A stretch of DNA of 64,000 bases from an uncultured Gammaproteobacteria bacterium (GTDB taxonomy: Bacteria; Patescibacteriota; Patescibacteriia; Magasanikbacterales; GWA2-37-8), in assembly GCA_964511375.1 (NCBI GenBank), contig CAZEEW010000001.1, forward strand, positions 70,512 to 134,511, in the 5' to 3' direction. This document shows positions 30,943 to 56,089 of this stretch, one piece after another (positions within the stretch are counted from its first letter, which is position 1; each line of letters opens with the position of its first letter). A program made the translations under genes and the position numbers. The notes under the pieces were generated by a model that saw only the letters and a program-made list of their open reading frames with translations, made no database searches and had not been told where the DNA came from.

Positions 30943-30977
30943 CTAAGTGAGATGCTGGCTCGGAGAGGAGGTGAGCG

Positions 30978-31208
30978 ATGAGCCAGTTCAAGCGAGGTCT
31001 ACCACCCGACCTCAAAGCAATGGGTGGCCAGGTTTTCTGCCGGGAGCGGTTTGGTACAATCGTCGGTTACTCAACCGACGCCGCTCGAGGCAGACGGACT
31101 CTTCTTGTTCTCCAGGTCGTTCCTGGGTTCGGGGCGCAGGTGCTCCGGATTTCGGAGAATGACCACGATCTCTCGCGTGTGAGACTGGCGACGGCTTCGC
31201 CATGCTAG
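30978..31208 (+). CDS. GC-rich small hypothetical protein of 76 aa (island A).
   Basis: A strong SD (GGAGAGGAGG) lies 6 nt before the ATG. Third-position GC is elevated. It is preceded by a nine-codon upstream ORF (MLARRGGER) whose stop overlaps the start as ATGA. It could alternatively be a structured RNA. Confidence 0.35.
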   Translation: MSQFKRGLPPDLKAMGGQVFCRERFGTIVGYSTDAARGRRTLLVLQVVPGFGAQVLRISENDHDLSRVRLATASPC

Positions 31209-31313
31209 CCCCACGCGATAAGAAGGAGGCCTCGTGGCCTGCCTGATTCTCTTTGGCGCCGTTAAACACCTCGCGGCGCCCCTTCATTAAAAAAAATAAT
31301 TAGCCGCCCTGAT

Positions 31314-31736
31314 TTAAGAGCGGCTATTGTTAAATATTTGTTCAATCAGAACGGGTAAATTGTCTGGCGTGGCGTAAGTGAAAATCTCTACTTCCGTATT
31401 GCCCTTAATCATAGCGGATAATTTGTAGGTGTCCTTGCCTTGGTAAAGACAGACAACTCGTTTTTTTTCGTTCAAAGCCTGAGCTATTTCATATCCTACA
31501 CCCAAGCTTGGTGTGGTTACTTCAGCAATTACAACATTACTATTTAAAATGTTTTTCATTTCTCTGTCATGAATTTCCTCTTTACTTAGGTCGGTTTCCC
31601 CGTATACAGTAATATTTTCGTCAGCGACCTGAGCAGATAAAACTCGGCCGTATTTTTGTAGTTCCCCAACTATTGTTGCATATATTGGCAACATGGCCCG
31701 TCCGCCCCGTATCGAACCAGTAAAGAAGATGTTCAT
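31314..31736 (-). CDS. Nucleoside 2-deoxyribosyltransferase-like (PF05014/Rcl-like) protein.
   Basis: It is 140 aa with the N-terminus MNIFFTGSIRGG, which is typical of the NDT/DNPH1 fold. A putative terminator hairpin (TAGCCGC...GCGGCTA) overlaps the stop codon. Confidence 0.45.
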   Translation of the reverse strand: MNIFFTGSIRGGRAMLPIYATIVGELQKYGRVLSAQVADENITVYGETDLSKEEIHDREMKNILNSNVVIAEVTTPSLGVGYEIAQALNEKKRVVCLYQGKDTYKLSAMIKGNTEVEIFTYATPDNLPVLIEQIFNNSRS

Positions 31737-31747
31737 AAAACTTAATG

Positions 31748-32539
31748 TTAATATCTTGGCGTATTGCTTAATTCCCAGATAAATTGAAATAAATTAGATT
31801 GCATTGTAATCAGGTTTTGATCTTCCAGTAAGAGTATGATGGGTTCGCGTCCATCGTGAGTAACGTAAAGCATTTTGGAATTATAAAGGTAAATGTCTTG
31901 GGTGGCAATCTTAAGGTTGTTTGGCCCGAGACGATGCCAAGTATAGTCATTAAGCGGTTGCTTTCTTATCCATTCCAAACTAGCAGTGCTATTTTCCACT
32001 AAAATATTGAGCGGCAGACGCTTATTAAGCCTTCTGACTTCAAAATCTTCTTGCACTTCTAAGCCGGGAATTTTTGGCGTACCAATATGTTTGTAATAAT
32101 AAATTATCTTAGGGTTAGAGCGCAAGATGTCTTCTAAGGCTGATTGGTAACCATGAATACCTTGAAAGATCGATGTGTCCGGTCGTTTAGACGAAAGACG
32201 GTAAGCAGCTTTTAGTTCAGGAATAATCTCCTGGATAGTTAGAGTGGTGTTTTTGAATTCCTGCCCGCGTTTGTCTAGCAATTCATATAACCGGTCGGGG
32301 TTTTCCACAATATATTCTGTTCGCCAACCCGCCTTTTCTCGTGTAACAAGGCCGGCTTCTTGTAAATTGTTTAGAACATAATACAATATGGTACGCGGGA
32401 AAGGTGTGCGTACTTGTAGTTCTTGTACTGTGCTTTTGGGATGCGTCAATAATAAAGAGTAAAGCAGGGACTCATTCTCCCCCAGCCCTAAATTCCGCAG
32501 GGCCTCTACCACCCGACTTTTTGTTTGTTTTTTAGCCAT
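31748..32539 (-). CDS. TrmB-family transcriptional regulator, a paralog of the gene at 10939-11676.
   Basis: It has an N-terminal wHTH (ESLLYSLLLTHPKSTVQELQVRTPFPRTILYYVLNNLQEAGLV) and a TrmB-like C-terminus. Confidence 0.55.
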   Translation of the reverse strand: MAKKQTKSRVVEALRNLGLGENESLLYSLLLTHPKSTVQELQVRTPFPRTILYYVLNNLQEAGLVTREKAGWRTEYIVENPDRLYELLDKRGQEFKNTTLTIQEIIPELKAAYRLSSKRPDTSIFQGIHGYQSALEDILRSNPKIIYYYKHIGTPKIPGLEVQEDFEVRRLNKRLPLNILVENSTASLEWIRKQPLNDYTWHRLGPNNLKIATQDIYLYNSKMLYVTHDGREPIILLLEDQNLITMQSNLFQFIWELSNTPRY

Positions 32540-32822
32540 ATGCGCTAGAATAACAGCTTTTTAATTATTTGTCAAATACATATTTACAATCTCATGCCTG
32601 GACTATTGCTAGGTATCCAAAAGTCTGCTATTATAAACGATCATCTTCAAAAAAAGAAGATGTTCAAATAATATTTACAAGCTCCTTAAAATTCGCAAAA
32701 AAGGCAAATTCAATCTGGCGAACCAACATTTTCTTTTAATTTTAGAAAAAAATGCTGGCTCGCCAGAAGGTCGTTCCTCACGGTGGGGGATGACTGGAAG
32801 GTAAGTTGGAAAGGAAAAAGAG

Positions 32823-33986
32823 ATGGAGTCGGTCCGTCTCTTGTCCTGGAGCTTCGTTCACGTGCTCCAGATGATTCTCAACCTCGCCCGGCGCGGCGGG
32901 GTCGACTTCTCCAACCCCGGTCTCCTCCGTGAGGCCCTGAACATCCGGGCCTGGGAGGCCCTCGACGAGTTGGGGCGCGACCCCAAACACTTGTGGCGGC
33001 TTACGCCGCCCCTGCACCAGGTTTACTCTCGGGCCCTGGCTTACGGAGCTGGGGACAGGTGTAGCCATAATCAGGTCTACATGGCAGCCGAACAAGCCAC
33101 CAGTCTCGCCGAGGTAGCACTCGGTGAGGTGGGGTACAGTTGGCTGTCGCGGCGTCAGGTTGCTGCTCAGCTGATCTACGCACTGGCGAATGAGATCCAG
33201 GGCGATCCGCACGCCCTGGACGCAGCCGAGCGTCAGTCCCGCTCCGAGGCCTTCCTCCGGGAGTTCTACGGGTGCGGGTGGGACGACCCCGACCCCGAGC
33301 TCCAGAAGGAAGTTGAGTACTACGAGCGCCAGCTCGGGGTGCTCTACTGCCTCAGGGCGATCGCGGTGCTCACCGAGCATCCCGAGCTCGACCTCGTCGA
33401 GCTGACCCGCCAGGGCCTCATGAAGTACGGGGTCGTGGACACCCGGGGCCGCCGGGTGTGCTACTGGTGCTCCGGTGCCCCCTGCGTCTGCGGTGGGCGG
33501 AAGGGCGGGATGAAGGCCCGCCGGCCGGAGATCACCTCCGACCTCGTCTGGGCCCGGGGACTGCCGGAGATGGACCAGCACATGGTCGTCTACGGCGTGT
33601 CTCGGAACTCGGCCATCAACGCCCTCGCGGGTGTGGTTCGCTCCCTGTCGGAGGACGGTGGGGAGTACGGATGGATCAACCTCATGTCCCGCTGTGGCGG
33701 GACGAACCGGGGAATCCAAGAGAGGCTCGGCTGCCTCTACCTCGGCAGCAGCCGGCACCCCCGCATGGCGGCCAAGAAGTTCGACGCCGAGGGCGTGCCT
33801 CTCATCGAGGGGCTCTACTCGGAGGCGGCGGACGCCGTCGTCTCCTGGCCCTGCCTCGTGACACAGGCCTTCGGTCTGCAGTTCACAAGGTCGGTCTTAC
33901 TCGGTCTCCAGCACATGGCCGATGGCGCCGGGGTCACGCTCGAGACCCCAGACGATCTGACCCGGACCATCCCGGTCCGCGAGTAG
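32823..33986 (+). CDS. GC-rich hypothetical protein of 387 aa (island B, gene 1).
   Basis: It has a strong GC3 codon bias in this frame. The SD-like AGGAAAAAGAG precedes the ATG. It has a Cys cluster (CYWCSGAPCVCGG). I recognised no domain. The overlapping antisense ORFs are composition artifacts. Confidence 0.55.
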   Translation: MESVRLLSWSFVHVLQMILNLARRGGVDFSNPGLLREALNIRAWEALDELGRDPKHLWRLTPPLHQVYSRALAYGAGDRCSHNQVYMAAEQATSLAEVALGEVGYSWLSRRQVAAQLIYALANEIQGDPHALDAAERQSRSEAFLREFYGCGWDDPDPELQKEVEYYERQLGVLYCLRAIAVLTEHPELDLVELTRQGLMKYGVVDTRGRRVCYWCSGAPCVCGGRKGGMKARRPEITSDLVWARGLPEMDQHMVVYGVSRNSAINALAGVVRSLSEDGGEYGWINLMSRCGGTNRGIQERLGCLYLGSSRHPRMAAKKFDAEGVPLIEGLYSEAADAVVSWPCLVTQAFGLQFTRSVLLGLQHMADGAGVTLETPDDLTRTIPVRE

Positions 33987-34187
33987 TCGCCTCGCCGGCT
34001 GTCCTTCGGGGCGGTCGGTGGGCATGGTTTAGAGGTGGGGCGTTTCTCTTAGGGGAGACGCTTGCGCCTCCCCTATCCCAGTATTTCTTAATTCAAGGAA
34101 TGTTGAGATAGGAGGCTCGTAGACCGACGTGTTTTCGTTGGGCGCTCGGTTGAGCGCACGGCGAAACACCAAACAGAGGGAGGACAA

Positions 34188-34547
34188 ATGGTCCACAAGG
34201 ATCTCAGAATCGAGCTGGTGCTCGGCGGCGTCACTTTTATCATCGTTGGCTTCCTCGAGGCAGGCGAGGAAGTGATCACCGGTGATGAAATGAAGCGTCG
34301 GCTGGCGGCCCGCTCCTTGCGGCTCATCCACGGGGCGGATTTCGAGCACTTCTCTCGCTACCGCGAGGATTTGCCGAAAGAACTCCGACCTCACCTACTG
34401 GCCACAGACCAGTGTGCTCCAGAGTGCCAGAAAGAGACGACCGTCTTCGAGTTCTTCGAAGATGTGGAAGTGTGGCACTCGTTCTGGCACAACCTTTGCG
34501 GCCCGACATGGGGCCACAACGTCTTGGCGGTGTGCTGTTGTGTGTAG
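34188..34547 (+). CDS. GC-rich hypothetical protein of 119 aa (island B, gene 2).
   Basis: The SD is GAGGGAGG, 5 nt before the ATG. It has GC3 bias. It is followed by a 14-bp GC hairpin. Confidence 0.45.
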   Translation: MVHKDLRIELVLGGVTFIIVGFLEAGEEVITGDEMKRRLAARSLRLIHGADFEHFSRYREDLPKELRPHLLATDQCAPECQKETTVFEFFEDVEVWHSFWHNLCGPTWGHNVLAVCCCV

Positions 34548-34555
34548 GAGGGAGC

Positions 34556-34600
34556 GGTGCCGGCGGGGGACCCCCCGCCGGCACCCGTAGTCCCTTTTAA
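34556..34600 (+). terminator. Strong GC hairpin terminator closing island B.
   Basis: The stem is GGTGCCGGCGGGGG-a-CCCCCGCCGGCACC (14 bp), followed by a T-rich tract. Confidence 0.6.
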
Positions 34601-34691
34601 TTTAAATCACTAGCGTTGTTTTATTATAACTTACCTCTTGATGTACTAAATAATTATTTGTGATATACTTCATTTATTCTAATTCTTAATT

Positions 34692-35315
34692 ATGACCCCC
34701 AACAAAATACAGGAGATCATCACGTTTTTAAATCGTGCTAATGAGCTAAAAGCTGTACCACGGTTCAGTGCTTCTTTAAAAGAAGGTGGAGATACAGTTG
34801 CCGAGCATTCTTGGCGACTAGCTCTCATGACATTTATCATCGCCCAAGAATGTAATTTAGATATCAATCTTGAGAAGGCTTTAGTTTTTTCGCTTTTGCA
34901 CGACTTGGCTGAAGCCAAAACCGGAGATATCGACGGGTATTTGGTCGCCACTCAAAAAGTATCTCTGAAAGATAAAGAAGCGGCTGAAGAAAATGCCATG
35001 CATGAAATGACCGATGATCTTTCCTTTGGTGAATGGATTTACCATATTTGGGAGGAATATGAAAAACAAGAGATAATTGAAGCTAAATTGGTTAAAGCTC
35101 TCGATAAAATTGAAGCCTACTTGCATATTATGGATACAGGCGTAGAGGCTTATATACCAACAGAGTTTCATGCCGACTATGCAGATAAAGCTGTGGCTGC
35201 TTTCGACGCCGCTACTTCTCATTTCCCCGAGCTTAAGGACTTATTAGAAGCTGTAAAAATCGCTTTAAGGGAAAAACTTGAGGCCCGAGGAGTTAGTTGG
35301 GAGAGCAAAGTCTAA
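34692..35315 (+). CDS. HD-domain phosphohydrolase, YfbR-like 5'-deoxynucleotidase.
   Basis: The HD motif is HSWRLALMTF...LLHDLAEAKTGDID. Confidence 0.7.
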   Translation: MTPNKIQEIITFLNRANELKAVPRFSASLKEGGDTVAEHSWRLALMTFIIAQECNLDINLEKALVFSLLHDLAEAKTGDIDGYLVATQKVSLKDKEAAEENAMHEMTDDLSFGEWIYHIWEEYEKQEIIEAKLVKALDKIEAYLHIMDTGVEAYIPTEFHADYADKAVAAFDAATSHFPELKDLLEAVKIALREKLEARGVSWESKV

Positions 35316-35325
35316 ATATAATTTT

Positions 35326-35901
35326 ATGGCAAATTCGGAAATAGAAATCAAAGTTAATATTGAAAACATGGATAATTTAACAAAGTTTTTAGAAGAAAAT
35401 GCCATGTTTAAATTGTCCACCCGTCAGATTGATGAATACTTTAATGCCCCAGATAGAGATTTTTTGGCTATCCGTCCGGTTACTGAATGGTTGCGTCTTC
35501 GGCAGACCAGAGAGGCGGTTCTGATAACTTACAAAAAGGCGCACTATACTACGGAGGGGAAGCTGAATTTCCGTGACGAGTTTGAAACTATAGTTGGTGA
35601 CATCGATCAAGCCAGAAAAATTCTTTTGTCTCTTGGTTATACTCCATTGGTTACAGTTAACAAAGTTCGCAAAATCTGGCGTTACCAGGAGTATGAAGTA
35701 GCCCTAGATGAAGTACAGGGATTAGGGATATTTGTAGAAATTGAGTATAAAGGTGAAGACCCAAGCAACCCAAAGTTAATCACTGACCAAATGATTGAGT
35801 TTTTACGGAAAGTTGATTGTGGAGAGATCAAACGGCACCACTCTGGTTACCCTTACATTATGCTTCTTCCTAGTGAGGCGCGTTACGATGTTATAACATA
35901 A
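35326..35901 (+). CDS. CYTH-domain protein (class IV adenylate cyclase / triphosphatase-like).
   Basis: The EIEIKV N-terminal signature (SEIEIKVNI) is present and the protein is about 190 aa. I chose the internal Met as the start to avoid a 38-nt overlap; the ORF track start is 35278. Confidence 0.6.
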   Translation: MANSEIEIKVNIENMDNLTKFLEENAMFKLSTRQIDEYFNAPDRDFLAIRPVTEWLRLRQTREAVLITYKKAHYTTEGKLNFRDEFETIVGDIDQARKILLSLGYTPLVTVNKVRKIWRYQEYEVALDEVQGLGIFVEIEYKGEDPSNPKLITDQMIEFLRKVDCGEIKRHHSGYPYIMLLPSEARYDVIT

Positions 35902-35914
35902 GTTTAGTAAACAA

Positions 35915-35937
35915 AATCCCGGCTATTAGCCGGGATT
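35915..35937. terminator. Bidirectional terminator between the CYTH gene and sodA.
   Basis: The hairpin is AATCCCGGC-tatta-GCCGGGATT, with T-tracts on both strands. Confidence 0.6.
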
Positions 35938-35942
35938 TAAGT

Positions 35943-36524
35943 TTAAAATAACTTTAGTACTTTCCACCAGTTTTCTATATAATCTTGCCTTCGGTTTTGG
36001 TATTTTAGGTAATAGGCATGTTCCCAGAGGTCGAGTCCTATAATGGGTGTGTGGCCAAGGGAAAGAGGTGAATCCTGATTAGGCAAAGAATACATTTTTA
36101 ATTTGTCATTTTCGTCACGCACCAACCAACTCCAACCGCTGCCGAAATGAGCAAGAGAAAGTTTGTTAAACTCTTCCTTAAAATTGTCCAAAGAACCCCA
36201 AGTCTCTTCAATTTTTTTAACTAACATTTCGTCAGTTTGCTTTTCTGGCCCCATGATGAGCCAATACAGGTTGTGATTAACAAACCCACCGCCATTATTT
36301 CTTATCTTCACTCGATCTCCCTCATCGACAGAAACATTTTTAATATCTGTGAGTATTTCTTCCGCCGTTTTTTCTGTTAGTTCTGAATATTTATTAACAA
36401 GTTCTTGGAAATTATCTAAATACTTTTGATGGTGCTTGGTATAATGTACCTCCATAGTTTTAGCATCAATGTACGGCTCAAGCGCATTATAACTATATGG
36501 TAATAGTACTAAAGAGTGTTGCAT
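35943..36524 (-). CDS. sodA: Fe/Mn superoxide dismutase.
   Basis: The N-terminus is LPYSYNALEPYIDAKTMEVHYTKHHQ, and the C-terminal motif is DLWEHAYY. Confidence 0.9.
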   Translation of the reverse strand: MQHSLVLLPYSYNALEPYIDAKTMEVHYTKHHQKYLDNFQELVNKYSELTEKTAEEILTDIKNVSVDEGDRVKIRNNGGGFVNHNLYWLIMGPEKQTDEMLVKKIEETWGSLDNFKEEFNKLSLAHFGSGWSWLVRDENDKLKMYSLPNQDSPLSLGHTPIIGLDLWEHAYYLKYQNRRQDYIENWWKVLKLF

Positions 36525-36619
36525 AAATGTATTCTTAGTAAATTTTAAATAGTATACATATTTAGTATGAATCTATCATAATGCAAAAGTGAAGCGAAGT
36601 CAAATATGTTTGTCATAAA

Positions 36620-36646
36620 GAAAACCCACGCTCTTAGCGTGGGTTA
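36620..36646 (-). terminator. Terminator downstream of recA.
   Basis: The hairpin is AACCCACGC-tctta-GCGTGGGTT, followed by a T-tract on the minus strand. Confidence 0.6.
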
Positions 36647-36650
36647 AAGT

Positions 36651-37739: not shown

Positions 37740-37764
37740 ACTAGAATAAAATTAAATACTTTTA

Positions 37765-38469: not shown

Positions 38470-38472
38470 AAT

Positions 38473-40785: not shown

Positions 40786-40853
40786 ATAACGTGGGGCTTG
40801 GTCTTGCTAAAACAAGCGAACTCAGGTATACTGACTGGTCAGGAATATGGAAT

Positions 40854-41413: not shown

Positions 41414-41833
41414 ATGCGTATAGGTATAATTGGGTCAATGCAGTTTACGGAAAAGATGTTAGAAGTAAGGGAGGCTTTAGTTGATTTAGGACACGATGCT
41501 TACGTGACAAGTTATGCCGTGGGTTTTGTTGGTAAAACAGACGAAGAAAAAGAAGTTTTAAAAATTGAACAGAAGATGGACAAAAACGAAGATGTAATCA
41601 AGGAATATTGGGACCTGATGCAAGGTGGCGATGTGGTTTTGGTTTTAAATTTGGATAAACACGGTATAAAAAATTACGTGGGAGGAAACACGCTTATGGA
41701 AATAGGGTTTGCGCACGTGCTCGGACAAAAAATATTTATGTGGAATCCTATTCCTGAACAGCCGTACTGTAAACACGAGATCGAGTCGGCTCATCCGACA
41801 ATTATTAATGGCGATTTATCTTTAATAAAATAA
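41414..41833 (+). CDS. Nucleoside 2-deoxyribosyltransferase-like protein, the second paralog.
   Basis: It is 139 aa with the N-terminus MRIGIIGSMQF, typical of the NDT/Rcl fold. Confidence 0.45.
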   Translation: MRIGIIGSMQFTEKMLEVREALVDLGHDAYVTSYAVGFVGKTDEEKEVLKIEQKMDKNEDVIKEYWDLMQGGDVVLVLNLDKHGIKNYVGGNTLMEIGFAHVLGQKIFMWNPIPEQPYCKHEIESAHPTIINGDLSLIK

Positions 41834-41834
41834 T

Positions 41835-42320
41835 ATGGAGATAATGGATATTGTAGACGGTAAAGACGAAGTCGTGGGTCAAGTAGATAAGGAAGACGTT
41901 TACAAAAAATTATTATGCCATCGTATAGTTCATGTACTAATTTTTAATGATGAGGGAAAAATGGCGCTGCAACTTCGCCACCCTAATCTTTCTTTTGCCC
42001 CAAATCATTGGTCGACCACAGTCGGTGGTCATGTCCAAAGTGGTGAAAGCTATGAAGAAGCGGCGAAACGTGAAATGATGGAAGAGATCGGGATTGAATT
42101 ACCGTTAGAATATTTTTCTAAAGATTTTTACCAAGTACCAGGGAGACCAGATAAATTTTTTGTTAGTTATAAAGCAAAATATGAGGGGCCTTTCCAACTG
42201 GAGGAAGGAGCAGTAGTAAAAGTTGACTATTTCACCATCGATCAAATTAAGAGCATGATTGATCAAGGTGAAAAATTTCATCCTGAACTTTTGTATCTTC
42301 TCAAGAAATACTTTTTGTAA
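41835..42320 (+). CDS. NUDIX hydrolase.
   Basis: The Nudix box is GGHVQSGESYEEAAKREMMEEIGIEL. Confidence 0.75.
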   Translation: MEIMDIVDGKDEVVGQVDKEDVYKKLLCHRIVHVLIFNDEGKMALQLRHPNLSFAPNHWSTTVGGHVQSGESYEEAAKREMMEEIGIELPLEYFSKDFYQVPGRPDKFFVSYKAKYEGPFQLEEGAVVKVDYFTIDQIKSMIDQGEKFHPELLYLLKKYFL

Positions 42321-47678: not shown

Positions 47679-47703
47679 CGGCCTTAATTCACCTTAAATA
47701 GTC

Positions 47704-50700
47704 ATGAAAAATATGTCACGCGATTCACTCCATTCAATTGACTTCGATGCCATTCGTCTTAGGCTGGCCTCTCCTGACATTATCCGCAATTGGTCATACG
47801 GTGAAGTAAACAAACCAGAAACCATTAACTACCGCACCCAGAAACCTGAGAAGGGTGGTTTGTTTGCCGAAGAAATTTTTGGTCCGACCAAAGACTGGGA
47901 ATGTTATTGTGGAAAGTATAAAAAGATTAGATATAAAGGTATTGTCTGCGACAAGTGTGGTGTAGAAGTTACTCACTCCTTAGTTCGCCGAGAACGCATG
48001 GGTCACATCGAACTGGCTGCTCCAGTCTCCCACATTTGGTTCTTACGTTCAGTCCCATCCAAAGTTGGTTTGGTTTTAGACCTTTCGGCTCAGGCTTTGG
48101 AAAAAGTTATTTACTTCGCTTCATTTGTAATAACTCAAGTCGATGAAGAAGGTAAGAAATTAGCTTCTGATCAATTACGTCAAGAATATAAGTCCAAACG
48201 CAAACAGATCGAACGTGAATTAGAACAAGCCATTCAAAAGTTGAATGATGAAAAAGCTGGGAAATCTGCTTTGGACAACGCCCAACAAGAAGCTGAGCGC
48301 AAATTAAAATCTCTAGAAAATGATTTCCAACAAGCTGACAAGGAACTAAAGGAAATCCAAGTGATGAAGATTGTTTCCGAAAATCGTTACCAGGAACTTT
48401 CTTTGCGCTATGGTCATTTATTTGAAGCTTCAATTGGTGCCGAAGCCGTCCGCAACTTACTCGAGCGCATTGATCTTGAAGAAACTATTAAACGTCTAAC
48501 TGAGGAACAACAAACTGCAAAAGGTGCAAAACGTGAAAGAATCATCCGCCGTAAGAAACTACTTAAGAGTTTGTTCATGACTGGTATCCGCCCAGAATGG
48601 ATGATCATGTTAAATATCCCGGTTATCCCACCAGACTTACGTCCAATGGTTGCTCTTGATGGTGGTCGTTTTGCAACCAGTGACTTAAATGATTTGTATC
48701 GTCGTGTTATTAACCGCAACAATCGTTTACGTCGTTTGAATGAATTGGATGCTCCGGAAGTTATCTGTCGCAACGAGAAAAGAATGCTGCAAGAAGCGGT
48801 TGATGCTTTGATCGACAATAGTGCTCGCCACTCAAAGACCGTCACTGCTTCCACTGGTCAAAAGAGACAATTGCGTTCTTTGGCCGACATCTTAAAAGGT
48901 AAACAAGGTCGTTTCCGCCAGAATCTTTTAGGTAAACGTGTTGATTATTCTGGTCGTTCGGTAATCGTCGTTGGCCCAACCCTAAATATTGATGAATGTG
49001 GTTTGCCAAAACGCATGGCTCTCGAATTATTCAAGCCATTCATTATTAGTGAGATTATTAAACGTGAATTAGCTCACAACGTTCGTAGTGCTAGCCGCTT
49101 TATTGAATCGGAGCGTGATGAGGTTTGGGATATTTTGGAAGAATTAACCAAAACCACTCGCGTGCTTTTGAACCGTGCGCCAACCCTACACCGCTTAGGT
49201 ATCCAGGCTTTCCACCCTCGTTTAATCGAAGGTAAAGCTATCCAATTACATCCCTTGGTTTGTACGGCTTTCAACGCTGACTTCGACGGTGACCAGATGG
49301 CTGTACATTTGCCTTTGACTTTAGAAGCCCGCGCTGAAGCCGATAATCTTATGGCTGCAGAAAAGAATCTTTTGAAGCCAGCGACTGGCCAACCAGTTAT
49401 TACTCCTAAGCAAGACATTGCACTTGGTTGTTTCTACCTGACTCACCACAAGACCGATGATACGGCTGAAGTTAAGAAGTTCTTCTATTCACCAAAGGAA
49501 GCCTTGCTTGCTTACAAGAGCCGCGTTGTTACTTTGCACGAACGCATTAAAGTTCGTATTTCTGAAGGTTTAGAACGACACGGCAAGAGCGAACCATTCT
49601 TGCTTGAGACTTCCATGGGTCGTCTTATCTTCAACGAAGTTGTTCCCGAAGGCTTACCATATTACAACGAAACAATTAACGTTAAAAAATTAGCCATGAT
49701 CATCCGGCTTTCTCTTGAAATGAATGGCCAAGAACGTACCGCTCATTTCTTGGATGATTTAAAGAACATGGGCTATAAGTATGTCACCAAGTCTGGTTAC
49801 TCACTTGGTATGAACAACTTCCCACGTATTGATGAAAAGCCAGCGATCTTAAAAGAAAGCGATGCTCGTGTACAAGAAGTAGAAGAACAATTCCAAGAAG
49901 GTTTGTTAACTCAAGCTGAACGTCGTGCCAAGATTTTAGAAATCTGGACTGAAGCTAAAGAAAAGATTTTGGCCAATAACCAAGCAACCTTGGATAAAAA
50001 CGGTCCAGTATTCGCCATGATTGATTCTGGTGCTCGTGGTACTTGGGGTCAGCTTGGTCAGGTTATTGGTATGAAAGGTTTGGTGGTGTCTCCTTCCGGC
50101 GATATTATCGAGCTTCCGGTTAAAGGTAACTTTAAAGAAGGTTTCGATGTACTTGAATTCTTCATCTCCTCCCACGGTACTCGTAAGGGTTTGTCCGATA
50201 CCGCTTTACGTACTGCTAACGCTGGTTACTTAACCCGTCGTTTAGTAGATGTTTCTCAAGATGTCGTAGTCTTAGAAGACGATTGTGGTGATGATATCGG
50301 TGAAACCTTTACTGAAGCTCAGTCTAAAGAAATGGGTGAGAAATTGGCTGACCGTGTCTGGGGTCGTTATGTCTTAGCGGATGTTAAGACAAACGATGGT
50401 AAGGTCATTGTTAAGGCCGGTGAAGCCATTGATGACAAAGCGGCTCGCGAAATTGAAAAGAGCGGTGTTACCTCAGTGCATGTTCGTAGCGTCTTACAAT
50501 GTCATTTGCCAAAAGGTGTTTGCCGCAAGTGTTATGGCTTTGATCTCGCCCACAACGCTCCAGCTAACATTGGTGTGGCCGTTGGTGTAATCGCTGCTCA
50601 GTCTATCGGTGAACCGGGTACTCAGCTTACACTTCGCACCTTCCACACTGGTGGTGTCATGGGTGGAGATATTACCCAAGGTTTGCCCCGCGTAGAAGAA

Positions 50701-51591
50701 CTATTTGAATGTCGTGCACCAAAGCACCAAGCTGTCTTGGCTGAAGTTGAAGGAACTGTCGAAATTGATGATGCTGACGGTAAGGTTATTACTTCCGCCT
50801 CTGGCAAGAAGATCTTTGAAGGCCGCCGTGGTCAAAAAATCATCCGCATTAAGTTTGAGGGTATGGAAGAAATGAAACTCAAATTTACTGAGGAAGACGA
50901 AGTGGAAGTAAAAGATGGTGATACAGTAAATAAAGATCAGGTTCTCATGGTTCGTGGTGGATCTGGTGAAGAAATTAAAGCTAAATACGGTGGTACTGTT
51001 AAAGTTAACAAGAACACTATTATTTTAACCTACGAAGGTCCAAAGGTTCGTGAATACATCGTCCCATTGGGTTACAAAGTCACTGTTCAAGACGGACAAA
51101 AGGTAGAAAAAGGTGACCGCCTAACTGATGGTAGTATTAACCTCCAAGACCTCTTTGATCTTAAGGGTCGCCCAGCGGTGCAAAGATACGTTTTGGAAGA
51201 AGTACAAAACATCTACTCTTCTCAAGGCCAGAAGGTTAATGATAAGCACGTAGAAATCATTATCCGCCAGATGTTTAGCCGTGTCTATGTTGAAGATGCT
51301 GGTGACACAGATTTATTACCAGGTGAAGTAGTAGAGAAAGCCCAGTTAGAGATTTCTAACCGTATGGCTAAGAAAGACGGCGGTAAGACTGCTACCTGCC
51401 GCGAACTCTTACTCGGTGTTTCTCGTGTTGCTCTTTCCACCCAGAGTTTCTTGTCTTCTGCTTCCTTCCAGGAAACAGCGAAAGTTCTTATTAACACCGC
51501 TATCACTGGTAAGATTGACTATCTTGAAGGTCTTAAAGAAAATGTTATTATCGGTCGTCTTATCCCAGCTGGTACTGGTTTCAAAGGTTAA
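47704..51591 (+). CDS. rpoC: DNA-directed RNA polymerase beta' subunit.
   Basis: It is 1295 aa. It carries NADFDGD and a zinc-binding Cys cluster. Confidence 0.97.
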   Translation: MKNMSRDSLHSIDFDAIRLRLASPDIIRNWSYGEVNKPETINYRTQKPEKGGLFAEEIFGPTKDWECYCGKYKKIRYKGIVCDKCGVEVTHSLVRRERMGHIELAAPVSHIWFLRSVPSKVGLVLDLSAQALEKVIYFASFVITQVDEEGKKLASDQLRQEYKSKRKQIERELEQAIQKLNDEKAGKSALDNAQQEAERKLKSLENDFQQADKELKEIQVMKIVSENRYQELSLRYGHLFEASIGAEAVRNLLERIDLEETIKRLTEEQQTAKGAKRERIIRRKKLLKSLFMTGIRPEWMIMLNIPVIPPDLRPMVALDGGRFATSDLNDLYRRVINRNNRLRRLNELDAPEVICRNEKRMLQEAVDALIDNSARHSKTVTASTGQKRQLRSLADILKGKQGRFRQNLLGKRVDYSGRSVIVVGPTLNIDECGLPKRMALELFKPFIISEIIKRELAHNVRSASRFIESERDEVWDILEELTKTTRVLLNRAPTLHRLGIQAFHPRLIEGKAIQLHPLVCTAFNADFDGDQMAVHLPLTLEARAEADNLMAAEKNLLKPATGQPVITPKQDIALGCFYLTHHKTDDTAEVKKFFYSPKEALLAYKSRVVTLHERIKVRISEGLERHGKSEPFLLETSMGRLIFNEVVPEGLPYYNETINVKKLAMIIRLSLEMNGQERTAHFLDDLKNMGYKYVTKSGYSLGMNNFPRIDEKPAILKESDARVQEVEEQFQEGLLTQAERRAKILEIWTEAKEKILANNQATLDKNGPVFAMIDSGARGTWGQLGQVIGMKGLVVSPSGDIIELPVKGNFKEGFDVLEFFISSHGTRKGLSDTALRTANAGYLTRRLVDVSQDVVVLEDDCGDDIGETFTEAQSKEMGEKLADRVWGRYVLADVKTNDGKVIVKAGEAIDDKAAREIEKSGVTSVHVRSVLQCHLPKGVCRKCYGFDLAHNAPANIGVAVGVIAAQSIGEPGTQLTLRTFHTGGVMGGDITQGLPRVEELFECRAPKHQAVLAEVEGTVEIDDADGKVITSASGKKIFEGRRGQKIIRIKFEGMEEMKLKFTEEDEVEVKDGDTVNKDQVLMVRGGSGEEIKAKYGGTVKVNKNTIILTYEGPKVREYIVPLGYKVTVQDGQKVEKGDRLTDGSINLQDLFDLKGRPAVQRYVLEEVQNIYSSQGQKVNDKHVEIIIRQMFSRVYVEDAGDTDLLPGEVVEKAQLEISNRMAKKDGGKTATCRELLLGVSRVALSTQSFLSSASFQETAKVLINTAITGKIDYLEGLKENVIIGRLIPAGTGFKG

Positions 51592-51602
51592 TAAAATATT
51601 TA

Positions 51603-51632
51603 AAGAGCCCCATAACTGGGGCTCTTGTTTTT
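51603..51632 (+). terminator. Terminator after rpoC.
   Basis: The hairpin is AGAGCCCC-ataact-GGGGCTCT, followed by TGTTTTT. Confidence 0.75.
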
Positions 51633-51815
51633 GGCTAAAATTTGAGATAGAATAACAATATAAAACAAAAATCCTACACTTTAAAGTATAGGATCTTATG
51701 TATTCCATTTAGCTTCTCTGTAGTCTTTAGCTAACAAGTGTTTGCTAGTTAAGGGCCGGGACAGAGAAGCTGTCCGCGGGTTAAAGAGTATGGGAACAGC
51801 TAGGTGGTTCGTCGA

Positions 51816-52037
51816 TCACCGCCTTCGCTGTAGAACAGCGAGGGTAGCGATTGAGAAGAACACACCTCCCACAACCGTCACGCGCTTAGGTTCGCGCGCA
51901 AGATCGTGGAACAAGCCGTCCCCGGTAAGGTCACCGCTCGCGCAGGCCAGGAGTCCGCAGATGATGCTTGCGAACACGGCTCCAGCCACGAGAGCGAGGA
52001 CTAGCCGAACGATCGCTTGATCACACTGCTGGGTCAT
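51816..52037 (-). CDS. GC-rich small membrane protein of 73 aa (island C).
   Basis: The SD is GGAGGGG, 6 nt before the ATG on the minus strand. It has one or two transmembrane helices (VRLVLALVAGAVFASIICGLLACA). The longer ORF to 52091 starts in the AT-rich flank without an SD. Confidence 0.4.
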   Translation of the reverse strand: MTQQCDQAIVRLVLALVAGAVFASIICGLLACASGDLTGDGLFHDLAREPKRVTVVGGVFFSIATLAVLQRRR

Positions 52038-52120
52038 TTGACCCCTCCATGCCCCCGCAGGGGCAAGTTGGAATAGACAAGATTTAATCACGAAAATGAG
52101 TTATAGTCAATCACATTTTT

Positions 52121-53986
52121 ATGTATAACCGCACCAAAATTATAGTCGTAACTTCCCTAATTTTAGCTATATTTGCAGGAATTCTAGGATATTTTTATGG
52201 GCCAAAAATATCCACAGATGGCAGCGTTTTTAACAGTACTGTTGAGGCTCAAAATGATAATCCCAACACCTCAACACCGGTCGTAGGTAAAAACCATAAT
52301 CCCTATGTAAACGATTCTCGTTTGTATGATGAATTTTTTGACTACGCCAAAAAGCCTAATGCCATTAGTGATAAAATTGTCTCTGGTGTTATCCCACATC
52401 ATCTTGTCGCTGGTCACTATGTAGCTGGATTTTTCGATTCTGTACAGAACACCGATCCTGAAGTAGTAGTATTGGTTGGGCCTAATCATGGGCAGCGTGG
52501 CAATGACAATTTTGTATCCAGCTACTTAAATTGGAACACACCATATGGTGAATTAAAGACAGATGCTAAATTGGTTGGTAAATTGGAAAAAGAAGGACTG
52601 GTTAAGATTAAGCCGGAAATAATGGAGGGAGAACATAGTATTAGTTCGCTCGTACCGTTTATCAGAAAAAACTGGAAAAACACTAAAATAGTGCCAGTCA
52701 TTGTTAAAAACAACGCCACAACTTCAGAATTAGATCGATTGGTGGAGTGGATTAAAAATGAAGTAGGAGATAAGGGATTGCTTTTAACTAGTGTAGACTT
52801 TTCACACTACCTGCAAAAAGATTCGGCAGATTTTCATGATGAGTTGTCCTTAGCAGTTTTAAGATCAGGCGACTTATCTCGGGTTCGTAAGTTGGAAGTA
52901 GATAGCCCTAATAGTTTGTACTTATTACTGAAGTACAATGAACAAATGGGTGCGAAAAAGTTTGAATTTTTTTCTCATACTAATAGTGCGGACATTTTAG
53001 AAAATCCGTCCTTGCTGGAAACCACTTCTCACGTCATTGCCGGATTTAATAGAGGTGAAGCGGCAGATAAGGCTATTACAATGCAATTTTTTGGCGACAT
53101 GATGCTAGAACGCAATGTTGCTAAGGTCATGGGCGTAAAAGGACTAGATTATCTTTTTGACAAATTAAAGGCCCAAGAAAACCGCTTCTTCTATGGCATG
53201 GACTTATTAGTTGCCAACCTCGAAGGTCCGTTTGCGCCAAGTAGAGTCCCCACCACTAAGTCCATCGCTTTTCGTTTTGATCCAAAACTCGCTTCGCAAT
53301 TGTCTAAGTATGGTTTCAGCGGATTCAATATCGCCAACAACCATACCGTGGATATGGGCTGGGCGAATGTGGATTACACCAAAAAGATTTTAAAACAAAA
53401 TAATTTAAAATATTTTGGTGATCAATTACGTGAAGGGAAAGAGTATTCTTGGATTGCGGGAGAAGAAATGGGCTTACCAGAAAAAGTTGCTTTTATCGGT
53501 GTTAATAACACCGACCACGCCTTGAAGATGGCAAAGGTTAGAGAAGCGATTGAGGAAGCAAAAAAGCAGGCTAGATACATAGTTGTTAACGTCCATTGGG
53601 GAGTAGAATACCAGCGAAACTCCAGAAAGGCTGAACAAGATTTAGCGCATTGGTTTGTGGACCAAGGAGTCGATGCGGTGATTGGTCATCATCCCCATGT
53701 GATTCAAGAAATGGAAGTGTATAAAGGTGCACCAATTTTTTATTCACTTGGCAATTTCATCTTTGACCAATATTTTTCAACGGAAACACAAGAAGGTATA
53801 AGCGTTGGATTAACTTTTAGCGACGGTAAGGTGAACGACGTGTATGTCTTCCCTTTCTACGGCACGAAATCCCAGGTTCAGTTAATGACCGGTAGTCGTA
53901 AAACAAAGTTTTTTGACTGGTGGAATAAAAATAGTCGGTTGGGAGGAGAGAAATTTGAAAATGGTAAAATAACTTTAAGTGAATAA
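52121..53986 (+). CDS. Fusion protein with an N-terminal AmmeMemoRadiSam-B/Memo-like domain and a C-terminal CapA (PGA_cap metallophosphatase) domain.
   Basis: The N-terminus has a transmembrane segment plus the Memo-like region (IPHHLVAGHYVAGFF...VVVLVGPNHG). The C-terminus carries the CapA motifs (NLEGPF, NIANNHTVDMG, HWGVEY, GHHPHV, SLGNFIFDQ). Confidence 0.6.
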   Translation: MYNRTKIIVVTSLILAIFAGILGYFYGPKISTDGSVFNSTVEAQNDNPNTSTPVVGKNHNPYVNDSRLYDEFFDYAKKPNAISDKIVSGVIPHHLVAGHYVAGFFDSVQNTDPEVVVLVGPNHGQRGNDNFVSSYLNWNTPYGELKTDAKLVGKLEKEGLVKIKPEIMEGEHSISSLVPFIRKNWKNTKIVPVIVKNNATTSELDRLVEWIKNEVGDKGLLLTSVDFSHYLQKDSADFHDELSLAVLRSGDLSRVRKLEVDSPNSLYLLLKYNEQMGAKKFEFFSHTNSADILENPSLLETTSHVIAGFNRGEAADKAITMQFFGDMMLERNVAKVMGVKGLDYLFDKLKAQENRFFYGMDLLVANLEGPFAPSRVPTTKSIAFRFDPKLASQLSKYGFSGFNIANNHTVDMGWANVDYTKKILKQNNLKYFGDQLREGKEYSWIAGEEMGLPEKVAFIGVNNTDHALKMAKVREAIEEAKKQARYIVVNVHWGVEYQRNSRKAEQDLAHWFVDQGVDAVIGHHPHVIQEMEVYKGAPIFYSLGNFIFDQYFSTETQEGISVGLTFSDGKVNDVYVFPFYGTKSQVQLMTGSRKTKFFDWWNKNSRLGGEKFENGKITLSE

Positions 53987-54000
53987 CTATTAAGTTTTGT

Positions 54001-54729
54001 ATGTCAGGACATTCCAAATGGCACAATATTCAAGGACGGAAAGGTAAACAAGATGCGAAGCGTAGCAACCTATTTACTAAATTTGCTAAAGGCATTACGG
54101 TCGCGGCCCAATCTGGTGGAGGAGACCCTGAAATGAATTTCTCTTTACGCATTGCAATTGAAAAGGCTAAGGCTGTCGGTATGCCCAAAGATAATATCGA
54201 GCGGGCTATCAAACGCGGCACTGGTGAATTAAATGATGGCGTAAAAGTAGAAACAGTAATATATGAGGGATATGGACCGGGCGGTGTGGCCATACTTCTA
54301 AAAGCTTTAACTGACAATAAGAATCGAACTGTTTCAGATGTTAAACATTTGCTTTCTGAACATGGTGGCTCAATGGCTGGGCCGGGAAGCGTACTTTGGA
54401 TGTTTGAGCAGTGGGGATTAATTACTATCAGCAGATCCAGCATTACCAAAAGTCGTGATGAATTTGAATTAGAGTTAATCGAAGCTGGGGCTGAGGATAT
54501 TGCCGACGTGGAGGAAGATAAAGTTGAAATTAAAACCAAAGTAGAAAATTTACAAAAAGTTTTAGCTGCTCTTAAGACCTCTGGTATTGAACCAGAACAA
54601 TCCGGATTAGTGTGGTTGGCTAAAGACGAAGTAGATGTGACACCAGAGAATGCCGAGAAGCTGGCCGATCTCTTCGCCGAACTAGAAGACAATGATGATA
54701 TCGAAGATTATTACACCAACGCTAAATAG
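54001..54729 (+). CDS. yebC: YebC/PmpR-family transcriptional regulator.
   Basis: The N-terminus is MSGHSKWHNIQGRKGKQDAKR. Confidence 0.9.
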   Translation: MSGHSKWHNIQGRKGKQDAKRSNLFTKFAKGITVAAQSGGGDPEMNFSLRIAIEKAKAVGMPKDNIERAIKRGTGELNDGVKVETVIYEGYGPGGVAILLKALTDNKNRTVSDVKHLLSEHGGSMAGPGSVLWMFEQWGLITISRSSITKSRDEFELELIEAGAEDIADVEEDKVEIKTKVENLQKVLAALKTSGIEPEQSGLVWLAKDEVDVTPENAEKLADLFAELEDNDDIEDYYTNAK

Positions 54730-54730
54730 C

Positions 54731-55255
54731 ATGAAAGCACTACTCGAAAAAAAGACAAGAATAATTGGTATTGACCCCGGTTTTGGTCGGGTTGGTTATG
54801 GCGTAATAGAGAAGGTAGGGAGGAGAGATTGGCAAGTAGTGGATTATGGTTGCATTGAAACCGCTAAGGGGAAAAAGTTTGTCGATCGCTTAACAGAAAT
54901 ATTTGACGAGCTAAATGTTTTAGTTAAAAAATACAAACCAGAAAGAATGGCGGTTGAAAAGCTATTCTTTTTTCGTAATGTAACAACCGCAATTGAAGTC
55001 GGGCAGGCCCGAGGGGTAATATTACTTACCGCTGTTCAGAATGGACTGGAGGTAGACGAATTTACGCCGCTTCAGGTAAAGCAAGCCATTACTGGCTACG
55101 GTAAAGCAGAGAAGCCGCAGATGCAGAAAATGGTAGCTATGATATTAGGTATCAAGGAAAAAATAAAATCCGATGATGCGGCCGACGCCCTGGCGATTGC
55201 TTTGTGTGCCGGACAGAGTCTGTGGATGAATAAACTAAAAGGAGTAAAACCGTGA
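54731..55255 (+). CDS. ruvC: Holliday junction resolvase RuvC.
   Basis: The N-terminus is IIGIDPGFGRVGYGVIE. I chose an internal start because the ORF track start at 54692 overlaps yebC. Confidence 0.85.
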   Translation: MKALLEKKTRIIGIDPGFGRVGYGVIEKVGRRDWQVVDYGCIETAKGKKFVDRLTEIFDELNVLVKKYKPERMAVEKLFFFRNVTTAIEVGQARGVILLTAVQNGLEVDEFTPLQVKQAITGYGKAEKPQMQKMVAMILGIKEKIKSDDAADALAIALCAGQSLWMNKLKGVKP

Positions 55256-55262
55256 AGCACGG

Positions 55263-55291
55263 TTGACAATTTGTCTAATTTTAGCTAAAAT
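55263..55291 (+). promoter_or_regulatory. Sigma70-like promoter upstream of the island D lipoprotein gene.
   Basis: The elements are TTGACA, a 17-nt spacer and TAAAAT. Confidence 0.45.
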
Positions 55292-55398
55292 CACATTCAT
55301 ACATTGGACGTGATTTGTTTTTTAATAGCGAAAATTGCTGTTAAAAAACATGTCTCGTCCAGGGCGGACGGGAGTAAACCCGCAACGGGAGAGTTCAG

Positions 55399-55932
55399 AT
55401 GAAGAGCCTGGTGTCGTGTTTCGTGCTGGTCGCCCTGTTCCTCAACCTGTTCGGCTGCATCGAAGCGGCCGAGTTCAACCACTCCGACGCGACGACCGTG
55501 TCGGAGGACGTGGCTAGCGTCCAAGACGTCTCCTTGCCAGAGGAGAACGACATCGCCATCAAGATTCCCCGGGCGGAGTGCCCGGAGGCAACAGCCGGAC
55601 CATACACGGTCCGAGTTGTGATCGACGCCACGACCTGGGTCAGGATCTCGTCCGAGGTAGAGCGTGTCTTCCTCAGCCGGGAGCTCGATGCAGATCGGAT
55701 GGACACGGCCGAAATTCGCGTCGAGTCCGCCGGGTGCGATTTCCAGTTCGCCATCAGCAACAACTCCACGGAGGTCGCGCACGTCTCTGTGGAAGCCCCG
55801 ACAGGGGTTTCCATCACCATCCGGTACGCCCGTGGCGGATCCGAGACCGTTCCCGCGAACGGTTTCAAGCAGGCGATCGTCTACACGGTCGGTAATGTGA
55901 AGTACTACTTCCATTACCAGCCGCCGGGCTGA
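55399..55932 (+). CDS. GC-rich putative lipoprotein of 177 aa (island D).
   Basis: The SD is GGGAGAG, 6 nt before the ATG. It has a signal peptide with a lipobox (LFGC). It has GC3 bias. The antisense ORFs are composition artifacts. Confidence 0.55.
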   Translation: MKSLVSCFVLVALFLNLFGCIEAAEFNHSDATTVSEDVASVQDVSLPEENDIAIKIPRAECPEATAGPYTVRVVIDATTWVRISSEVERVFLSRELDADRMDTAEIRVESAGCDFQFAISNNSTEVAHVSVEAPTGVSITIRYARGGSETVPANGFKQAIVYTVGNVKYYFHYQPPG

Positions 55933-56056
55933 GCACCAAGGGCGGCAAGTCGCCGCCCGCGAGGCTGCCGCATCGTACTGGCCCTCGTATTCATTATTAA
56001 TCCTTTGGGGTTGGTAATGAGTACTTACTTCCAGTACGCTTGCGAATAAAAATAAA

Positions 56057-56089
56057 GGACTTCCCAATCGGGGAGTCCTTTTGACTTTT
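56057..56089 (+). terminator. Rho-independent terminator after the island D gene.
   Basis: The hairpin is GGACTTCCC-aatc-GGGGAGTCC (9 bp, with one G-U pair), followed by TTTTGACTTTT. Confidence 0.7.

Follow-up and report, generated by a model that had tools for sequence, protein, structure and literature searches.

We analysed a 64,000-nucleotide stretch (hereafter the window) of contig CAZEEW010000001.1 (assembly GCA_964511375.1, positions 70,512 to 134,511 of the forward strand), in which four short GC-rich segments, here called islets A to D, interrupt an AT-rich chromosome. The host is a Candidatus Saccharibacteria bacterium. The window is ordinary core chromosome with genes for PolA, RmuC, type IV pilus proteins, RecA, FtsK, RpoB/C, RuvC and others; its type IV pili, its NDT, HD and CYTH proteins and its lack of biosynthetic genes agree with such a host. 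When 100-nt windows with a GC content of at least 0.55 were merged across the 64 kb, exactly four long islets emerged, at 30930-31310 (57% GC), 32752-34629 (63%), 51740-52087 (58%) and 55335-56041 (60%), against 40.6% GC in the rest of the window (standard deviation 4.6% in 200-nt windows). The same scan returned no further stretch in the window that matches the islets in both length and GC content. The islet borders are abrupt, within a few bases, and gene calls and Pfam searches place all four islets in intergenic gaps. The islets and their open reading frames (ORFs) are as follows, with the GC content of third codon positions (GC3) and, where given, the Shine-Dalgarno (SD) sequence and its duplex energy with the anti-SD sequence.

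30947..31300, plus strand: islet A, marked by a GC step, about 59% GC, between pilB and an NDT-like gene; present in Logan contig L001
30978..31208, plus strand: A76, a 76-aa predicted ORF, SD GGAGAGGAGG (-13.3 kcal/mol), GC3 0.62; called as a gene in L001
32752..34595, plus strand: islet B, a two-gene unit, about 64% GC, between TrmB and an HD/YfbR-like gene; present in Logan contigs L001 and L002
32823..33986, plus strand: X387, a 387-aa predicted all-alpha cytoplasmic protein, GC3 0.86
34188..34547, plus strand: B119, a 119-aa ORF, SD GAGGGAGGA (-11.9 kcal/mol), GC3 0.74, with a Cys-rich C-terminus (CCCV, 34536-34547)
51740..52080, minus strand: islet C, marked by a GC step, about 59% GC, between the rpoC terminator and the Memo-CapA gene; present in Logan contig L024
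51816..52037, minus strand: C73, a 73-aa predicted two-helix membrane protein, SD GGAGGGG (-9.8 kcal/mol), GC3 0.65
55335..56050, plus strand: islet D, about 60% GC, between RuvC and SpoU; present in Logan contig L006, with orthologous islets in L013 and L019
55399..55932, plus strand: D177, a 177-aa predicted lipoprotein with a signal peptide, the lipobox LFGC and a hypervariable mature domain, GC3 0.82

The five islet ORFs have GC3 values of 0.62-0.86, compared with 0.29-0.45 for the roughly 50 host ORFs in the window, and islet codon use shows C3 of 0.48 and G3 of 0.37. The anti-SD duplex energies of the five islet genes range from -5.9 to -13.3 kcal/mol, whereas the 48 host genes average -0.35 kcal/mol and none of them reaches -6 kcal/mol or better. 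Thus SD sites precede 5/5 islet ORFs and 0/48 host genes, a contrast stronger than that drawn in the earlier note on this DNA, which had described strong SD sites on the islet genes and their scarcity on host genes. The islet proteins are Arg-rich, with R/(R+K) of 0.67-0.86 against 0.2-0.5 for host proteins. Since the untranslated regions (UTRs) and spacers within the islets are also GC-rich (54-81%), the bias is not limited to codons. The same note had reported discrete GC steps, third-position GC bias and intergenic placement at pilB/NDT, TrmB/HD, rpoC/Memo-CapA and RuvC/SpoU, and had described a dispersed, stylistically uniform, foreign-looking gene set; the GC scan (57-63% against 40.6%), codon use, SD sites and gene calls bear this out.

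The near-absence of SD sites from host genes was also seen in two relatives, L014 and L019. Together with the window, this points to an SD-independent mode of translation initiation in this Saccharibacteria clade. The islet genes of L009, L013, L014 and L019 have SD energies of -7.8 to -11.8 kcal/mol, and the host genes of these relatives have energies of about 0. The window carries tRNA genes for Arg-CCT, Ala-CGC and Ala-GGC (9873-10022 and 22517-22591); all three read G- or C-ending codons, so decoders for GC-rich codons are retained.

X387 is the founder of a small, Saccharibacteria-only family with the conserved motifs CYWCSGxPCVCGGRKGG, VYGVGRNSA and SWPCLVTQAFG. Among 5.8 billion proteins searched, its homologues form five clusters at 42-69% identity, and the only genome records with X387 relatives are an "uncultured Candidatus Saccharibacteria bacterium" metagenome-assembled genome (MAG) and a "Patescibacteria group bacterium" MAG. 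X387 or its homologue (hereafter X) lies at the TrmB..X..HD locus in all eight related genomes recovered. Wherever the context is readable, a divergent NDT-TrmB pair precedes it and the HD/YfbR-like gene follows it, with a MazG-like 110-aa gene inserted between at some loci. X387 sits in a nucleotide-salvage neighbourhood. Between the window genome and the five clade-1 relatives with readable context, identity is 42-69% for X, 42-49% for TrmB, 53-60% for HD and 55% for NDT; X is conserved at least as well as its neighbours. The eighth genome has an X allele only 27-32% identical to X387. The all-alpha NTP pyrophosphatase / dimeric dUTPase superfamily is a possible affiliation of X387. No credible Pfam family was found for X387, and a Foldseek search against PDB and BFVD gave no significant match.

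The GC3 of X exceeds that of its flanking genes in all genomes but one (L003/L007). The difference is +0.48 in the window genome, +0.48 in L010, +0.25 in L023, +0.17 in L004, +0.13 in L005, +0.12 in L020 and 0 in L003; in L008, where X is only partly on the contig, X has 56% GC and its flanks 41%. The earlier note had held that GC-rich homologues in related AT-rich genomes would weaken its idea of imported genes, and such homologues are what we found, X being syntenic throughout and raised in GC3 in all but one genome.

The eighth genome is that of a close relative, represented by contigs L009-L012 from JGI, ENA and Logan samples. Its HD protein is 93% identical to the window HD protein, and its B119 homologue (P0008), in the same place, is 71% identical to B119. 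The DNA of L009 is 87-97% identical to the window over the spacer that follows X, the homology starting exactly at the X stop codon (33985), and 68-93% identical over B119 and HD. The upstream gene in L009-L012 is X-like and has GC3 of 0.91-0.93; its product shares only 27-32% identity with X387. Deeply divergent alleles thus occur at the X locus within one genus, and both deep alleles are extremely GC-rich. B119 has a rate of nonsynonymous divergence (dN) of 0.19 against L009, compared with 0.04 for the adjacent HD gene. Two further features of islet B are conserved in this relative:

33987..34187, plus strand: GC-rich X387-B119 spacer of about 200 nt (204 nt if read to 34190), 87-97% identical to L009, with a predicted minimum free energy of -97.8 kcal/mol (z = -5.47)
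34556..34585, plus strand: 14-bp GC-rich hairpin at the end of islet B, a putative terminator read from the sequence, with a T-run beginning 9 nt later

The spacer is more conserved than nearby synonymous sites and is predicted to form four or five hairpins. In the first of these, L009 and the window differ at two positions, each turning a G.U into a G-C pair; these are the only such changes seen. The spacer has no Rfam match, and we regard it as a candidate cis-regulatory element or structured RNA. The terminal hairpin is kept in L009 with compensating changes and was not flagged by the terminator scan.

Relatives of D177 were missed in the first protein search because public gene calls place an antisense ORF at this locus; these miscalls also explain why D177 is absent from protein databases. 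An exhaustive HMMER search then found two relatives, at loci L013 and L019 (GCA_035289165.1); the homologues are a 189-aa protein of L013, P0009 and P0010. The features surrounding D177 are:

55263..55291, plus strand: host-style promoter TTGACA-17-TAAAAT, matching the consensus at 11/12 positions, upstream of islet D
55933..56037, plus strand: conserved, GC-rich 3' UTR of D177 with predicted hairpins (GGGCGGCAAGTCGCCGCCC; GTACTGG...CCAGTAC)
56054..56081, plus strand: predicted intrinsic terminator closing islet D, picked up by the terminator scan, a 12-bp stem followed by a T-run, only moderately GC-rich
55297-56067, minus strand: spurious 256-aa antisense ORF over islet D, a public gene call

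The order RuvC, lipoprotein gene, SpoU is found in three genomes (window, L013 and L019). The signal peptide is kept in all three, and the lipobox lies at the same position as LFGC in the window genome, LFGC in L013 and LTGC in P0009. Because this lipoprotein signal is conserved in two homologues, the D177 reading frame is validated. Between genomes the D protein is 35-44% identical, while RuvC is 84-97% and SpoU 85-92% identical, and dN is 0.47-0.59 for D against 0.01-0.18 for the flanks. At the DNA level, the 5' UTR, the signal peptide, the last ~10 codons and the 3' UTR align at flank-like identity (the 3' UTR is ~80-87% identical to L013, the same as the flanking genes), whereas the mature domain is scrambled. 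In the window genome, L013 and L019, respectively, D has GC3 of 0.82, 0.85 and 0.77 and SD energies of -7.4, -10.7 and -10.9 kcal/mol. These features mark D177 as a predicted hypervariable surface lipoprotein, which may act at the interface with a host or with phage. Its structure model had a predicted local distance difference test score of 44, too low for a fold search.

The presence of GC-rich rho-independent terminators on islets B and D, as first proposed, is borne out in part: the hairpin of islet B is GC-rich, but its T-run lies 9 nt off, and the islet D terminator is only moderately GC-rich. Likewise, of the host-style promoters proposed for islets A and D, that of D is clear, while that of A is plausible only, as an extended -10 element.

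To judge the age of the islets, we compared the window genome with L009, L013 and L019. The flanking genes are saturated at synonymous sites, with a proportion of synonymous differences (pS) of 0.56-0.84 and a synonymous divergence (dS) of 1.0 to infinity. In a two-state model of decay toward the host GC3 of 0.37, a gene starting from GC3 1.0 is expected to have at most 0.56 at a flank dS of at least 1.5. The orthologous islet genes nevertheless have GC3 of 0.72-0.93 in every lineage (D 0.82/0.85/0.77, B119 0.74/0.72, X 0.86/0.91-0.93), which argues that the GC-rich state is actively maintained. The conserved parts of the islets diverge at the flank rate, indicating co-inheritance with the flanks, and since these parts are no younger than the flanks, a recent sweep through the genus does not explain their GC content. 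Recent transfer of islets among the relatives was rejected on the same ground. What we infer most firmly, within the assumptions of the model, is that some force holds the GC-rich state, which is not the leftover of a recent import. An ancient foreign origin is possible, although no donor was identified. We class the islets as genes of atypical composition that do not ameliorate, with synteny across saturated divergence seen for B and D.

Translational selection for the cell's own tRNA pool is an unlikely source of this state, because GC3 is only 0.31-0.38 in rpoB/C and in the ribosomal-protein region (genes at 41414-42320) and because the non-coding parts of the islets are GC-rich too. The predicted folds of the islet RNAs are more stable than expected from base composition. 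In the interior of islet B, sliding-window folding gave z of about -3.3 for the sense strand, -1.7 for the antisense strand and -0.4 for host sequence; these scores came from dinucleotide shuffling, and windows straddling a border were discarded as mixed-composition artefacts. In a codon-shuffle control that keeps the three-base periodicity, islet genes had z of -2.9 against -1.1 for host genes (Mann-Whitney p = 0.005).

The joins between islets and chromosome are reproduced elsewhere. The Logan assembly of SRR5011273 is identical (100%) to the window along 11.6 kb that include islet A and part of islet B (L001), and its contigs L024 and L006 span islets C and D; the assembly of SRR6488411 covers all of islet B with 1 mismatch in 4965 nt (L002). 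The assemblies of both runs hold the identical 387-aa protein together with its flanks. Orthologous islets are present in other metagenomes and MAGs, and the relatives share the architecture. Chimeric assembly is therefore not supported, since the joins recur in the assemblies of two sequencing runs and in relatives, and neither is the suggestion of an assembly or engineering artefact, all four islets being in the SRR5011273 assembly and islet B in that of SRR6488411. No known marker or vector proteins occur among the islet proteins.

Searches for a family, a donor or a means of mobility were negative throughout. The five islet proteins and three proteins of relatives gave nothing credible in Pfam, PHROGs, PADLOC or NCBIfam, in agreement with the view that the five products belong to no recognisable family. 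A tblastn search with the concatenated islet proteins against phage and plasmid collections gave no hits, scans of IMG/VR and of JGI metagenomes with an X profile gave no match, and neither did a genome scan with a single TrmB protein. In protein sets of 5.8 billion and 1.84 billion sequences, X387, B119 and D177 have no homologues outside Saccharibacteria/Patescibacteria contexts. Among the ORFs of the window, Pfam detected neither an integrase nor a transposase nor a reverse transcriptase, and no tRNA adjoins an islet, the window tRNAs sitting only at 9.9 kb and 22.5 kb; the earlier note had likewise seen no integrase, transposase, tRNA attachment site or inverted terminal repeats. Comparisons within and between islets and of islets with the window (k-mers, blastn-short) returned only chance-level 9-11-mers, apart from the ATGCTGGCTCG pair described below. 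No terminal repeats, att-like sites or sequence common to the islets were found, which leaves the suggested cargo-delivery mechanism unsupported. Integron cassettes were rejected because the islets lack an integrase, would have promoters of their own and share no end sequence save a single 11-mer with which both A and B open on the left. The target of a diversity-generating retroelement was rejected because the window ORFs include no reverse transcriptase and no islet segment recurs within the 64 kb. At gathering score, Rfam recovered the three tRNAs and no other RNA, and a search down to E <= 1 gave no credible match within the islets; ARAGORN found no transfer-messenger RNA in the window, and no 16S rRNA gene lies within it. 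In sum, of five tests for a recent island the islets pass that of composition and fail the other four (mobility marks, absence from relatives, donor and amelioration).

Occupancy of the islet sites varies among relatives. In L014, whose RuvC is 70% identical, the RuvC-SpoU gap is ~30 nt, so the islet D site is empty. L014 bears GC-rich islets of its own, one right after rpoC, at the islet C position, and one after RpiB. The first has no sequence similarity to islet C; the second holds a 161-aa SD-led gene (14612-15097) with GC3 of 0.83 that is weakly similar to B119. B119 and this 161-aa protein share a ~56-aa motif, FxxFLExGExxxxGxEM...IPxELR (E = 0.004), which hints at a small family of islet proteins at differing sites. 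Repeated TTGTCATTCCGAC / TTGTCATCCTGAGC...GCGAAGG-type motifs lie beside the GC-rich islets of L014 (7767, 7932 and 15406) and may be repeats like repetitive extragenic palindromes or miniature inverted-repeat transposable elements. L019 has no islet after rpoC; between its rpoC and Memo-CapA genes lies a 1260-aa radical-SAM / B12-binding / aminotransferase fusion gene (2817-6599). In this clade, the gap after rpoC looks like a variable site of insertion. The only empty sites were the islet D site of the more distant L014 and, at a different locus, the islet C site of L019. Taken together, the islets proper to L014 and the differences in occupancy indicate that the style recurs across the clade while the occupied sites vary.

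Islets A and C are smaller, and the following elements were read at islet A and at the matching edge of islet B:

30934..30942, plus strand: extended -10-like element TGgTATACT, read from the sequence just upstream of islet A; a putative promoter
30952..30962, plus strand: the 11-mer ATGCTGGCTCG, first copy, at the base where islet A turns GC-rich
32752..32762, plus strand: second copy of ATGCTGGCTCG, at the left edge of islet B

The islet A promoter was not detected by the two-hexamer promoter scan. The exact ATGCTGGCTCG motif has only these two copies in 64 kb. Both lie 10 nt past a -10-like hexamer, and both would open a short upstream ORF beginning MLAR; in islet A the putative upstream ORF reads MLARRGGER, and its TGA overlaps the A76 ATG. 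Neither L004 nor L005 shows the motif upstream of X. Islets A (31114-31124) and B (32768-32778) also have another 11-mer in common, AGGTCGTTCCT. The predicted RNA fold of islet A has z = -3.96. Islet C scores z = -5.95 when folded as the minus strand and z = -4.95 as the plus strand, and its predicted fold would pair the 5' and 3' ends of the transcript. GC3 periodicity is weak in A76 and C73 (0.62 and 0.65 against GC1 of 0.66-0.69), and C73 is best described as a predicted coding sequence. Public gene calls place no gene over islet C and the spurious antisense ORF over islet D; gene finders probably err here because they are trained on the AT-rich bulk and misled by the atypical composition.

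From these results, we propose, at a probability of about 0.5, that the islets are resident, vertically inherited and lineage-restricted units whose style is maintained, with selection at the mRNA level as the favoured force. The four islets would be transcription units of a Candidatus Saccharibacteria (Patescibacteria) clade, of one or two genes each, every unit being driven by its own AT-rich promoter. Common to all would be a style of GC-rich codons and UTRs, proteins rich in Arg, strong SD sites and mRNAs with an unusual degree of structure; this style may stem from an old transfer, yet would have been kept through saturating synonymous divergence. That the maintaining force is mRNA-level selection for stable, highly structured transcripts is a tentative suggestion. 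On that suggestion, the other genes would start translation from unstructured, AU-rich leaders, a route closed to a folded, GC-rich leader, which would therefore depend on a strong SD. The islet proteins would be accessory and fast-evolving, probably with functions at the host or phage interface under diversifying selection, and such selection would lead to allele replacement and to presence/absence differences among relatives. In a variant to which we give little credence, the islets make up a second, selectively maintained class of expression, marked by GC-ending codons, a strong SD and folded mRNAs and with its own translation or decay regime. Such messages could be stored or RNase-resistant mRNAs for a stage of the epibiont life cycle, read by ribosomes with an exposed anti-SD; in the extreme case they would be fitted to the translation machinery of a GC-rich, SD-using actinobacterial host.

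Several points weigh against residence with a maintained style. The amelioration calculation assumes that the mutation spectrum of the flanks applies in the islets and that D and B were each inserted once in an ancestor. X in L003/L007 has no GC3 excess, so the maintaining force is not universal. The folding excess is moderate, and the host gene HD (z = -3.7) overlaps the islet range; mRNA-level selection is itself a step that we infer from sequence. The GC-rich sequence of islet D starts ~50 nt downstream of the predicted transcription start, and islet B likely has an AT-rich leader segment, so that islet and transcript do not exactly coincide. The very sharp borders, the SD sites and the GC-rich terminators resemble those of an inserted foreign fragment. 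Finally, the comparative support covers islets B and D, A76 and C73 being predicted ORFs, and it draws on a small number of loci on short metagenomic contigs.

The main rival is GC-biased gene conversion at recombination hot spots, at loci swapped by natural transformation under diversifying selection, which we consider unlikely. On this account, biased heteroduplex repair would drive the loci to high GC in place. It would fit the mosaic of islet D, with conserved ends and a scrambled middle, the X alleles that are 27-32% identical in close relatives with a homology break exactly at the X stop codon, and the varying presence of islets among relatives; RecA and type IV pilus genes lie in the window, and every class of islet site, non-coding included, is GC-rich. 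However, the GC3 shift of +0.45 is very large and implies a population-scaled bias of ~2.4-3, and the shifts in recombining bacterial genes are reportedly far smaller. The borders are also sharp to a few bases, with no GC rise in the adjoining flanks, where conversion tracts must end, and X, although more conserved than its flanks across distant genomes, is still GC-elevated. The correctly spaced SD in 5/5 genes would be left unexplained. Those SD sites, together with the codon use, the Arg-rich proteins and the GC-rich terminator, resemble high-GC bacteria, which would fit repeated import from GC-rich, SD-using donors (actinobacterial hosts or their mobile elements) that replaces resident alleles and so keeps the composition refreshed. 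According to two reports (PMC10633639, PMC10187176), cultivated Saccharibacteria are epibionts on Actinobacteria and naturally competent. The X and D alleles of close relatives are far more divergent than their flanks. We nonetheless regard this account as distinctly unlikely, since neither the protein sets nor the phage, plasmid and viral collections yielded a homologue of X387, B119 or D177 from beyond Saccharibacteria/Patescibacteria contexts. Same-site replacement needs homology arms, which a foreign donor lacks, and the UTRs, the B spacer and B119 are orthologous with flank-like divergence, so they were never re-imported and yet are GC-rich.

For islets A and C (~340 nt each) it could be asked whether they are primarily structured non-coding RNA (ncRNA) genes or structured mRNAs like those of type I toxins. 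Their fold z-scores, their weak GC3 periodicity, the lack of a public gene call in C, and the small, hydrophobic C73 with its predicted pairing of transcript ends would agree with this. But no Rfam family appeared even at E <= 1, nor a transfer-messenger RNA by ARAGORN, both islets hold an ORF with a correctly spaced strong SD, and the idea, which we think improbable, would not account for islets B and D, where the ORFs are conserved at the protein level. Recent multi-site acquisition, as entertained in the earlier note, or an assembly or engineering artefact would account for the sharp compositional steps, the foreign-looking style and the orphan proteins. For B and D it is contradicted by synteny across saturated synonymous divergence, the B 387-aa gene being syntenic in eight genomes and D in three with saturated flanks; the joins that recur in two sequencing runs and in relatives, and the lack of known marker or vector proteins, mobility genes and repeats, make it hardly credible for the set.

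Compositional oddity is routinely taken as a sign of recent transfer; here it marks genes that have long been at the same loci with their signal unfaded. If the pattern is true genome-wide, the genes of Saccharibacteria would fall stably into two classes, the bulk and a GC-rich class led by SD sites. It would then give a direct handle on the force, mRNA-level selection or biased gene conversion, that holds bacterial synonymous sites ~0.45 GC3 units off mutational equilibrium, and a route to lineage-specific, fast-evolving surface or accessory proteins likely relevant to the epibiont-host interface. There is also a warning for annotation, because standard gene callers err at islet loci, as with the antisense ORF over D177 and the missing call in islet C.

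We found no description of the islet pattern in the literature, and several known systems resemble parts of it. Lawrence and Ochman reportedly described acquired genomic islets of atypical composition and modelled their amelioration. Like these, the window islets are discrete intergenic blocks of atypical GC content, codons and translation signals, with orphan accessory genes and patchy presence. Unlike them, they are GC-richer, not AT-richer, than the host, are only 0.3-1.9 kb long and lack an integrase, a tRNA site and repeats; they are also syntenic across genus- to family-level relatives and not ameliorated, and no donor was found. Klein, Misulovin and Eddy (2002) are said to have screened AT-rich genomes for ncRNA by GC content. 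The islets share with GC-rich structural RNA genes the short GC-rich blocks, the significantly stable predicted folds and the AT-rich chromosome, but in islets B and D the encoded proteins are conserved, three-base periodicity and a lipoprotein signal are present, and no Rfam family occurs in the islets.

Naturally transformable bacteria have hypervariable surface-protein loci with allelic mosaics and conserved ends. Islet D is similar in its conserved UTRs, signal peptide and C-terminal tail round a scrambled domain, and X in its deep alleles at one locus, in a host with competence-type pili and RecA; to our knowledge, such loci are not known to differ from the remainder of their genome in composition and SD usage. 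Lassalle et al. (2015) reportedly found that GC-biased gene conversion raises GC3 in recombining bacterial genes. The islets likewise have raised GC3 in genes with signs of recombination, but their shift is about ten times larger, has sharp borders and comes along with SD sites. In SD-poor Bacteroidota, few genes are SD-led, and rpsU/bS21 is autoregulated through sequestration of the anti-SD. The islet genes, too, are a small strong-SD minority in an SD-poor genome, suggesting a separately controlled translation class, although the phylum and the genes are others and the islet SD comes with GC-rich codons. The combination for which we found no description is one of tiny, dispersed single-gene units that join GC3 of 0.8-0.9 and a strong SD, in a 40% GC genome that is otherwise SD-less, with synteny across saturated divergence and fast-evolving products.

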